A stretch of 64,000 bases of DNA, taken from an uncultured Candidatus Saccharibacteria bacterium. Lineage in GTDB: Bacteria > Patescibacteriota > Minisyncoccia > UBA6257 > 1-14-0-10-44-23. Both the position numbers and the translations under genes were made by a program. Positions within the stretch are counted from its first letter, which is position 1, and every line of letters begins with the position of its first letter. The notes beneath the pieces are model-generated. The model worked only from the letters and a program-made list of their open reading frames with translations, was not told where the DNA came from and searched no databases. The DNA lies in the NCBI GenBank assembly GCA_964394435.1, contig CAYMXN010000002.1, positions 142,196 to 206,195 of the forward strand, read 5' to 3'. Shown here one piece after another: positions 35,594 to 36,476 of this stretch.

Positions 35594-36355
35594 TTATTTA
35601 TTTTTTGCGAAAAAGATACTGACAAAGAAAAGACCGGCGGCGATGGTGATAATCGTTGGGCCGAGGTCGAAGCCGTGGAGCACGTTGAGGATAATACCGA
35701 GGCCGACGGAGACGACGGAGAGTAAACTGGATAAAAACAAATCAGATTTGAATGTACGGGCGAGATTTTTGGCGGTGGCGGCGGGAATAATGACGAGAGA
35801 GCCCATTAATAAGATGCCGAGGAACTTGAGGCCGAGGATAATCGTGATGACGAAAATAATTAGGTAGGCGAGATTAAGTCTACTGGTTTTGATATCGAGC
35901 GTGCTGGCGATATCAGGCGAGAGGATGGAAAGTGTGAGGCGTTCTTTGAGTGCGAGGAGGGTGAAGATAATCGTGAGGCTAATGACAAGGCCGATGATTG
36001 CTTGAAGTGGTGAAAATGATGCGGCGTTTCCAAAGAGTTCATCGAGGAGCTCTTCGCGGGTTGAGAGGAGTGCGCCAATAGCGAGTGAGGCGGAAAAGAC
36101 GACGCCAATAATGCTTTCGGTGGCTACTTTAGTTCGCTGTTCTACACTCCAAACAATCAACGCACCGGTGATTAAGGTAGTTGTAGCGCCAATAATCGGG
36201 TTAATGCCAAAAAGCGCGGCAAGGGCGAGCCCTGGTAGAGCGATGTGACTCATCGCGTCAGAGGCGAGCGTCATTCTGCGCATTAGCGCGAACGAACCAA
36301 CGAGTCCGGCGGCTGCGGCGGAGACTAAGATAGTGATGATAGTGAGCGTATTCAT
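35594..36355 (-). CDS. Metal (Zn/Mn) ABC transporter permease, ABC-3 family (ZnuB/MntB/TroCD-like); start set to ATG 36355 (MNTLTIITIL...) which lies inside the inverted-repeat element
   Basis: GSFALMRRMTLASDAMSHIALPGLA motif of ZnuB family; track N-terminal extension (MPKAHPASNG) is a translation of the element hairpin. Confidence 0.8.
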   Translation of the reverse strand: MNTLTIITILVSAAAAGLVGSFALMRRMTLASDAMSHIALPGLALAALFGINPIIGATTTLITGALIVWSVEQRTKVATESIIGVVFSASLAIGALLSTREELLDELFGNAASFSPLQAIIGLVISLTIIFTLLALKERLTLSILSPDIASTLDIKTSRLNLAYLIIFVITIILGLKFLGILLMGSLVIIPAATAKNLARTFKSDLFLSSLLSVVSVGLGIILNVLHGFDLGPTIITIAAGLFFVSIFFAKNK

Positions 36356-36476
36356 CCCGTTAGAGGCAGGATGTGCTTTTGGCACATCCGTTATTAGTTG
36401 CTAATAAATGACTTTTCATAGGATTGTATATTTTGGTTGTTTGTATATTTAAAATTCTGATCGCCTCTAACGGGAT
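36351..36476. repeat. Inverted-repeat-bounded intercistronic element copy 1 (TIR TTCATCCCGTTAGAGGCAGG ... GCCTCTAACGGGAT), between znuC-like and znuB-like genes
   Basis: 14-bp perfect terminal inverted repeats; second copy with same termini at 59337..59464; internal hairpin GGATGTGC-TTTTG-GCACATCC. Confidence 0.7.

Follow-up and report, generated by a model that had tools for sequence, protein, structure and literature searches.

Two short inverted-repeat elements beside start codons in a Saccharibacteria genome, probable MITE-like relics of a Patescibacteria repeat family that encodes a GIY-YIG nuclease

Here, we describe two short inverted-repeat elements in a 64,000-nucleotide (nt) stretch of DNA from an uncultured Candidatus Saccharibacteria bacterium (NCBI GenBank assembly GCA_964394435.1, contig CAYMXN010000002.1, positions 142,196 to 206,195 of the forward strand), the whole of which is called the window and provides the coordinates used throughout. 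One element, copy 1, separates a znuC-like from a znuB-like ABC transporter gene, and the other, copy 2, lies between the genes for ribulose-phosphate 3-epimerase (rpe) and the N-terminal subunit of transketolase (tkt). Both are likely to be non-autonomous, internally deleted relics, similar to MITEs (miniature inverted-repeat transposable elements), of a very small mobile family of Patescibacteria, or candidate phyla radiation (CPR), the full form of which is about 280 bp long, carries a single 94-codon GIY-YIG gene of the UPF0213/Slx1/Ssn-like type and has a 5-bp duplication at its flanks, usually of ATGAA, a host start codon followed by AA. The two window copies themselves are probably immobile, given that no nuclease gene is present in the window and that neither copy has a clean duplication. 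The features of copy 1 and its surroundings are as follows.

36356..36474, minus strand: inserted core of copy 1, CCCG...CGGG, 119 nt, in the same direction as znuC-znuB and exactly the segment absent from orthologous junctions
36354..36367: A-end arm of copy 1, ATCCCGTTAGAGGC, adjacent to the host start codon and equivalent to the 3' end of the parent nuclease gene
36463..36476: B-end arm of copy 1, GCCTCTAACGGGAT, equivalent to the parent gene's 5' end, with 1 nt, the last base of the znuC stop codon, shared with that gene
36369-36376 / 36382-36389: subterminal hairpin of copy 1, GGATGTGC-TTTTG-GCACATCC, 8 bp, one base inward of the A-end arm
36351..36355, minus strand: left flank TTCAT (ATGAA on the minus strand, the commonest flank of the family), containing the permease ATG at 36353-36355
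35594-36355, minus strand: ABC-3 (znuB-like) permease gene (Pfam ABC-3, E = 1.8e-44)
36476..37180, minus strand: ABC transporter ATPase (znuC-like) gene, the upstream host gene, with its stop codon TAA at 36476-36478

Copy 2 and its host genes comprise a corresponding set.

59337-59464: copy 2 with flanks, TTCATCCCGTTAGAGGCAGG from 59337 and GCATCTAACGGGATGAA to 59464
59342..59459, minus strand: core of copy 2, CCCG...CGGG, 118 nt, with its own polarity opposite to the rpe-tkt operon
59337-59341 / 59460-59464: flanks of copy 2, TTCAT and ATGAA, an inverted pair
59355..59371: subterminal hairpin of copy 2, GGGTGCT-TGG-AGCGCCC
59460..60317, plus strand: transketolase N-terminal subunit gene (tkt), the host gene (Pfam Transketolase_N, E = 2e-60), with an ancestral ATGAAACTG start
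58614..59303, plus strand: ribulose-phosphate 3-epimerase gene (rpe), the upstream host gene

The arms of copy 1 are 14 nt long, 100% complementary and 95 nt apart, and the perfect inverted repeat, the inner hairpin and the contact with the znuC stop codon that a preliminary description of this DNA had reported are all present. That description also named a second copy with identical termini; the copy does lie at 59337-59464, with the same 20 nt at its left end, but the termini are only nearly identical, the right arm of copy 2 having one mismatch (GCATC vs GCCTC), and its arms, 21 nt in length, are 90% complementary. The two copies cannot be aligned in their interiors. Their common features are the ends and the position of the hairpin just inside one end, and the two hairpins differ from each other by compensatory changes (GGATGTGCT/GGCACATCC vs GGGTGCT/AGCGCCC). 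The window contains three exact occurrences of the 14-mer TCTAACGGGATGAA, all of them at the two elements, and matches with 3 mismatches are at the chance level (7 observed vs 5.2 expected). Searches of the window detected no GIY-YIG gene, no GIY-YIG similarity inside either copy and no copies beyond these two. Both sequences are identical in independent Logan assemblies (L001-L005, five assemblies, for copy 1 and L215 for copy 2) and hence are not assembly artefacts, an explanation that the preliminary description had left room for.

The RNA of both copies is predicted to fold strongly, with a free energy of -43 kcal/mol for copy 1 in the sense of the messenger RNA (mRNA) (z = -9.3 vs shuffles) and -52 kcal/mol for copy 2 (z = -5.3 vs shuffles). 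In the predicted folds, a 15-bp stem of copy 1 closes exactly at the insertion point, leaving the UAA of znuC and the AUG of znuB at the foot of the helix, and the tkt start codon is paired within an 18-bp stem of copy 2. When Rfam 15 was run over the window at the gathering threshold, only tRNAs were returned and neither copy matched a model; relaxing the search to E values up to 10 yielded, for the element region, a single chance match to CRISPR-DR46 (16 bits vs a cut-off of 50). No promoter-like sites were found in the window copies, and the sole terminator-like match in them, the hairpin of copy 1, is antisense to the operon and has a poor T tail; promoter or terminator cargo was accordingly rejected. 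A tRNA-like reading of the repeat (acceptor plus T-stem) was also discarded, the junction being a plain 13-bp hairpin with a TTCA loop that shows no ARAGORN-type features and no Rfam match.

Element-free relatives exist for both junctions. All ZnuB orthologues at 91%, 73% and 71% identity are 253 amino acids (aa) long, and their genes lack the element, the znuC TAA being followed after 1-5 nt by the ATG. The comparison of orthologous znuCB loci for empty sites, which had been proposed as a check, revealed the absence of copy 1 from the relatives L122, L124, L125 and L126; the junction AAATAAT[CCCG..CGGG]ATGAAT of the window corresponds to aaaTAAT ATGGAC in L122 and to aagTAAT ATGACC in L124. 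Copy 2 is absent from L209, a Saccharibacteria metagenome-assembled genome (MAG), and from L210, where the rpe-tkt spacer is 37 nt long vs 156 nt in the window, and the Tkt orthologues without the element are 96-97% identical and have the same ATGAAACTG (ATGAAA) start. With flanking DNA 81-88% identical overall, this is a comparison between related species, and it sets the window in or near Saccharibacteria. Judged by it, both window copies are insertions, and the ATG beside each element is the host's own start position because the element-free orthologues start at the same place. A 21-nt spacer difference upstream of copy 2 was considered as a trace of co-conversion and dismissed, since ordinary divergence suffices to account for it at this overall identity of the flanks.

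These alignments also change the picture of the znuB start codon, which the preliminary description took to be supplied by the terminal repeat. That wording is misleading: the close orthologues start at the same ATG directly after TAAT, and the ATG overlaps only the outer 2 nt of the 14-bp repeat. The window znuB differs from its orthologues at codons 2-3 only (AAT ACG vs GAC GCA), where it matches the usual ATGAA flank of the family. Copy 1 appears to put 119 nt of strongly folded RNA between znuC and znuB, once coupled through their stop and start codons, and the base of its stem is predicted to put the UAA and the AUG side by side again. Public gene calls start the znuB-like permease at a GTG inside copy 1 (36356-36385, minus strand; L001-L005), which gives a 263-aa product, MPKAHPASNG-MNTL...; because all close orthologues are 253 aa long, this is a 10-codon N-terminal mis-annotation of ZnuB caused by copy 1.

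For a census of the family, the 18-mer TTCATCCCGTTAGAKGCA was searched against species-representative genomes, with at least 116 stretches matching. Among the matches listed, nearly all are in Patescibacteria of many classes (Saccharibacteria, Paceibacterota, Microgenomates and others), often several per MAG, and a partner arm lies within 420 nt in 106 of 121. Matches in Planctomycetaceae, Roseovarius, Scytolyngbya, Lachnospiraceae and Bacteroides have no partner arm, and a Prochlorococcus match (L012), although scored as paired by the loose partner pattern, was found on inspection to lack the CTCTAACGGG arm. The matches outside Patescibacteria look like chance, of which, by our own estimate, a few tens are expected for the pattern in that genome collection, and confinement of the family to Patescibacteria is part of the reading that we favor. 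Other MAGs carry at least 3-5 loci each. Local clusters were observed, such as four elements within ~2.5 kb in L104 (1400-3830) and two different short elements on either side of a 262-aa host gene in L009 (3127-4168). A phage vector for the spread was rejected, with both 18-mers producing 0 matches in IMG/VR and the nuclease protein described below matching nothing in PHROGs or PADLOC. Our literature search by sequence and keyword (CPR with MITE, GIY-YIG or leaderless; UPF0213/YhbQ) retrieved no paper describing the repeat or its short derivatives.

The inverted repeat of the family is 13-14 bp long, (T)CCCGTTAGAG.. / ..CTCTAACGGG(A), and the elements are polar. The A-end reads NTTCAT followed by CCCGTTAGAGGCAGG, and the B-end, on the same strand, reads GCCTCTAACGGG followed by ATTCAT; with its flanks, the whole element on one strand is TTCAT-CCCGTTAGAGGC...GCCTCTAACGGG-ATTCAT and, in the reverse reading, ATGAAT-CCCG...CGGG-ATGAAN. 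In most copies, only one of the two strands has TTCAT ahead of CCCG. The ATG at the A-end starts an open reading frame (ORF) of 60 aa or more in 101 of 124 cases, with a median length of 172 aa, vs 21% for random ATGs. The elements form two size classes, of about 100-140 nt and of about 260-300 nt, alongside a few of 40-80 nt. Across 135 elements, the arms pair in 92-100% at positions -2 to 11 and in 97-100% when only positions -1 to 11 are counted; three types of base pair occur at positions 9-11, and the arms covary (GAGGC/GCCTC, GAGAC/GTCTC, GAGAT/ATCTC, GAGAA/TTCTC, AAAGAT/ATCTTT). A subterminal hairpin of at least 6 bp is found at the same position in 48 of 101 short members, with 31 different stems, vs 10% of shuffles. 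On the evidence of this comparison, both the inverted repeat and the subterminal hairpin have been maintained through compensatory changes.

Signs of transposition were sought at the flanks. The duplication test was restricted to copies whose flanks the search pattern had not fixed, and 1000 shuffles served as the control. Exact 5-bp direct repeats border 49 of 97 such copies, compared with a shuffled mean of 15.7 and a maximum of 23. ATGAA is the commonest repeat; when the ATGAA cases are removed, 17 of 49 copies still have 5-bp repeats (shuffled mean 1.3), and these duplications are varied (GTAAA, ATGGA, ATGAG, GCGGG, GTCAA, ACAAG, ACGAG, ATAAG). At all loci, the nucleotide that separates the upstream repeat from CCCG is the complement of the repeat's first base (T with A, C with G), so that the stem is one pair longer than the constant repeat. 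Nested and tandem elements occur as well, sharing one TTCAT. In a minority of copies, including copy 2 and L021 2448-2575, the flanks are inverted (TTCAT...ATGAA) rather than direct, and the palindrome thereby reaches 18-21 bp. A sister subfamily with the ends C-CCCGTTAGAA...TTCTAACGGG-G (L047 4064-4180, L098 4190-4304, L080, L104 3669-3830) is nested in elements of the main family just after the A-end CAGG and has its own short flank repeats (CCTGC, CTTG).

The coding parent of the family emerged from its longer members. The 280-nt member at L019 encodes a 94-aa protein with a Pfam GIY-YIG match (E = 1.6e-17) and 3734 homologues at E <= 1e-5, and the best 120 of these are mostly exactly 94 aa long, with the N-terminus MNPVRD/G and a C-terminus, FLSLTG, that is encoded by the repeat. 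Catalytic-type residues are invariant in the GIY-YIG homologues, and the closest solved structures are those of UPF0213 BH0048 (E = 2e-10) and EF2693, followed by SLX1. At 80 metagenome loci, the gene starts ATGAATCCCGTTAGAG.. and ends ..CTCTAACGGGATGA, the inverted repeat thus forming its first and last codons, and its TGA overlaps the ATG of the next gene. The nuclease ORF spans exactly from one duplication to the other, with start and stop codons taken from the flanks and terminal codons from the repeats. A profile built from 31 full-length genes matches 104 of 120 short elements at both ends, with graded pieces retained (up to 104 nt on the 5' side and up to 69 nt on the 3' side), which identifies the short elements as internal-deletion derivatives. 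On the minus strand, copy 1 matches model positions 4-28 (B-end) and 258-286 (A-end) and copy 2 matches positions 264-286; over 29 nt, the A-end of copy 1 shares 93% identity with the 3' ends of the L019, L129 and L130 nuclease genes. A second full-length subfamily (L177, L189, L193, L197, L201) has its own internal ribosome-binding site and ATG and encodes an 86-aa protein, MFYTYV..., with the TAA or TGA stop taken from the flanking duplication (GTAAA or GTGAA).

The closest described counterpart is the SsnA system of Neisseria meningitidis. SsnA is a 94-aa single-domain GIY-YIG enzyme that binds the oriented hairpin repeat CGTCATTCCCGCG..CGCGGGAAT (NTS) only as single-stranded DNA and cuts upstream of it, and Ssn homologues are flanked by such repeats in a layout called 'identical to IS' (insertion sequences), with a domesticated mobile element only hypothesised (Chenal et al., Nat Commun 2025, PMC11893778). 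The two systems share a single-domain GIY-YIG protein of ~94 aa, a gene bracketed by its cognate inverted-repeat motif and many gene-less intergenic copies. An oriented 5' extension of TCAT plus CCC is also common to the Neisseria NTS (CGTCAT-TCCCGCG..; PMC11893778), to Sinorhizobium (CCTCAT-CCCTGTG..) and to the CPR family (TTCAT-CCCGTTAGAG..), and its position next to the stem in all three suggests a common mode of recognition. The CPR protein profile, for which the nearest PDB family is UPF0213, aligns with the hairpin-flanked Sinorhizobium GIY-YIG protein (hhalign probability 97.5%, E = 6.5e-12). The Sinorhizobium unit is a 96-aa GIY-YIG gene on S. meliloti pSymB (CP090106.1; L216 200-830), bordered on either side by CCTCATCCCTGTG-CTCGT-CACAGGGATGAGG hairpins that are present in several copies and in both orientations, and it represents an Ssn/SRM-type unit from outside Neisseria.

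There are also clear differences. The CPR arms pair across the whole gene or its remnant (loop of 50-280 nt), whereas Ssn/NTS has a hairpin of 20-50 nt on each side; the CPR arms are, unlike those of Ssn/NTS, the coding ends of the gene. Four further traits of the CPR family, namely 5-bp duplications, empty sites, nesting and start-codon placement, have no counterpart in the main text of PMC11893778, which mentions neither Patescibacteria nor target duplications nor start codons. Our verdict, drawn from sequence comparison, is that the element is probably a CPR-wide variant of the Ssn-type nuclease/hairpin-repeat system, to which it adds evidence of insertion, target duplication and deletion derivatives, as well as the attachment to start codons.

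Placement on start codons suggests how such an insertion could be tolerated. Of 100 elements, 30 have a -10-like hexamer whose end lies 4-9 nt ahead of the upstream ATGAAT, vs 14 of 275 control ATGAA sites, and motifs like that of Shine-Dalgarno are rare there (9 of 100), so that many targets look like leaderless gene starts. In L065 and L146, the sequence just before the ATGAAT of the element resembles the 3' end of a tRNA gene (GGTTCGAACCC, GTTCGATTCTCGCC), and some insertions may directly follow tRNA genes. The nuclease ORF begins at the upstream ATG, as does the mini-ORF, MNPVRG..., of short copies; copy 1 is without this upstream ATG. In 31 of 66 short copies, the mini-ORF runs through the entire element and ends either at a TAA within the A-end, 4 nt short of the host ATG, or at an ATGA overlap, and the ATG-to-ATG length is biased to one frame class (38 of 66). 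As a test of selection on the mini-ORF this is only suggestive, given that the repeat itself closes the other two forward frames. The pattern, with its modest statistics, would fit translational coupling of the host gene through the element.

In the mechanism that we propose, the upstream ATGAA copy would lend the host promoter and start codon to the nuclease gene or to the leftover mini-ORF, and the downstream copy would provide both the TGA stop and the ATG of the host gene (the ATGA overlap), the host gene still being expressed by translational coupling. The nuclease would recognise the folded ends on the strand reading TTCAT-CCCG and make the cuts for movement, by analogy with Neisseria SsnA, and we infer that it moves the element itself. 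In its most specific form, the proposal holds that the ~280-bp GIY-YIG genes are autonomous transposons driven by an Ssn-like single-stranded-DNA nuclease, which insert with a 5-bp duplication precisely onto ATGAA starts, borrow the host promoter and start codon, and return translation to the host gene via the ATGA overlap, and that the window elements are their MITEs; this form is tentative, and we put it at somewhat below an even chance.

Several groups of small mobile repeats bear on this assignment. Bacterial MITEs such as Correia, RUP and ERIC resemble the elements described here in being ~120 bp long, non-coding, intergenic, co-transcribed and variably present between relatives, with terminal inverted repeats and, at the level of the family, target duplications and a longer coding relative with the same ends. 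The CPR family differs in that this relative is only ~280 bp long and encodes a GIY-YIG nuclease, not a DDE transposase, and in the fusion of one end to start codons. With Correia and ERIC there is no sequence similarity, the CPR duplication is 5 bp long with a preference for ATGAA, and the hosts are Patescibacteria, not Neisseria; the Correia element duplicates TA. The original proposal of a MITE/Correia/ERIC-like mobile repeat is therefore borne out in its first part, by the empty sites, more than 100 family copies, the 5-bp duplications and the coding parent, and not in its comparison with Correia and ERIC, from which the elements depart in sequence, duplication length and parent.

Elements of the IS200/IS605 and PATE/REP-RAYT types, which transpose as single strands by 'peel and paste', offer an analogy in their very small size, subterminal hairpins read as single-stranded DNA, strand specificity, short flank 5' of one end and many gene-less derivatives. 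IS200/IS605 and REP-RAYT rely on HUH tyrosine transposases and have neither terminal inverted repeats nor target duplications, and IS200 is ~700 bp in size. In contrast to IS200/IS605, the CPR family has inverted-repeat ends and 5-bp duplications, and the only protein encoded inside its members is of the GIY-YIG fold. The likening of Ssn units to IS200/IS605-type elements is drawn in PMC11893778. Rickettsia palindromic elements (RPEs), likened here by description, are palindromic selfish repeats of ~100-150 bp in a lineage with reduced genomes, tolerated as compatible with translation. RPEs sit in frame inside coding sequences, whereas the CPR elements are located directly 5' of the start codon and, if translated, yield a mini-ORF of their own, which stops 4 nt ahead of the host ATG or overlaps it. 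Rickettsia is among the genomes richest in SRM repeats (PMC11893778).

A number of observations weigh against the elements being nuclease-driven transposons and their relics. Copy 1 has no 5-bp duplication (AATAA vs ATGAA), its upstream AATAA(T) being ancestral host sequence, and copy 2 has inverted flanks, TTCAT/ATGAA, in place of a direct duplication. Only two copies and no nuclease gene are present in 64 kb, and similarity of the window copies to the gene is detectable over no more than ~25-29 nt at either end. Open mini-ORFs exceed reverse-strand frames, which are open in 8-22 of 66 (12-33%), only by a modest margin, and the copies are not phylogenetically independent. A 5-bp duplication is, moreover, the typical product of a DDE transposase, and we know of no joining activity of Ssn enzymes; those characterised only cut single-stranded DNA (PMC11893778). 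The last two points would suit a conventional MITE, mobilised in trans when a DDE or tyrosine transposase recognises these repeats, with the GIY-YIG gene as passenger or stabilising cargo, for which terminal inverted repeats together with a 5-bp duplication are the classic DDE signature and the known Ssn enzymes being nucleases only (PMC11893778) is an added argument. We nevertheless regard this as quite improbable: in the ~200 loci examined, no longer element with these ends and matching flanks encodes a conventional transposase, and a nuclease ORF that reaches exactly from duplication to duplication, with the repeats as its terminal codons, is hard to square with a passenger. Eight candidates for larger composite elements with the same ends were rejected as neighbouring separate copies, for example in L009. 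A host-serving repeat system is an unlikely explanation, in which the hairpins are sites where an Ssn-like nuclease trims incoming or replicating DNA and thereby controls natural transformation and recombination in the vicinity of particular genes, and the window copies are functional. SsnA/NTS modulates transformation in N. meningitidis, where the authors suggest a domesticated IS-like unit (PMC11893778), PMC10187176 describes Saccharibacteria as naturally competent, and the conserved polar ends, TTCAT-CCCG, resemble the oriented NTS. Close relatives, however, manage without both copies, and the window lacks a nuclease gene; target duplications, nested copies and a graded series of deletion derivatives are marks of selfish spread, and the placement on start codons would be left unexplained.

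Gene conversion offers another route: a free-standing GIY-YIG homing-endonuclease gene and its remnants, spread by double-strand-break repair, could explain why the window copies have no duplications and why znuB codons 2-3 differ as if the flanks had been co-converted. GIY-YIG is a classic homing-endonuclease fold, the 94-aa protein has a weak TIGR01453 match, and GIY-YIG ORFs are present in non-intron insertions of CPR rRNA genes (PMC11270868), which may be the same element. That paper, however, places the rRNA ORFs 'outside the context of homing', and the protein is a single domain of 94 aa without a DNA-binding domain, its TIGR01453 score (21 bits) falling below the cut-off of 56. With insertions beside hundreds of unrelated genes and varied 5-bp direct repeats at other copies, we consider homing very unlikely and did not place the family in the I-TevI / Seg class of GIY-YIG homing endonucleases. 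A cis-regulatory RNA structure had been raised as an alternative from the outset; in this reading, the elements would be a structured part of the operon, conserved in Patescibacteria, that serves as leader, attenuator, RNase III site or translational coupler. This alternative has in its favor the very stable predicted folds, the covarying stems, the position of the elements directly 5' of start codons and the juxtaposition of the znuC stop and znuB start at the stem base of copy 1, but as the primary nature of the elements it is barely credible. The two window copies are oriented oppositely relative to the transcripts of their host operons, Rfam has no match, orthologous operons do without the element, homologous copies encode a protein, and lineages that differ at the phylum level have an invariant stem sequence but unrelated interiors.

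Two further observations on the window stand apart from these questions. The genes for the tkt N- and C-terminal subunits are ~260 nt apart both in the window (60318-60576) and in L209, with an 82-aa hydrophobic ORF (60341-60589) between them; in the more distant relatives L211 and L212 they overlap or are 45 nt apart, and the gap in the window may be another insertion. The window also contains ten tRNA genes (29417, 29752, 33736, 34230, 35182, 41111, 41240, 42778, 52464, 55364), a high density that fits a very small genome.

If the nuclease proves to be the mobility enzyme of this family, GIY-YIG would join the folds that drive prokaryotic transposition, the published guess of an IS-like origin for Ssn/NTS would gain comparative proof in the form of duplications, empty sites and nesting, and a new lower bound would be set for the size of autonomous mobile elements. 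In practical terms, the elements cause mis-annotation of gene starts, break metagenome assemblies and mark many apparently leaderless CPR gene starts, and they offer a large, naturally occurring set of nuclease/hairpin pairs on which the single-stranded-DNA tools proposed for Ssn enzymes could draw. Although the genomes of Patescibacteria are among the smallest of any bacteria, members of this family are dispersed through them, and the proposed design would let an insertion at a start codon spare the host gene.

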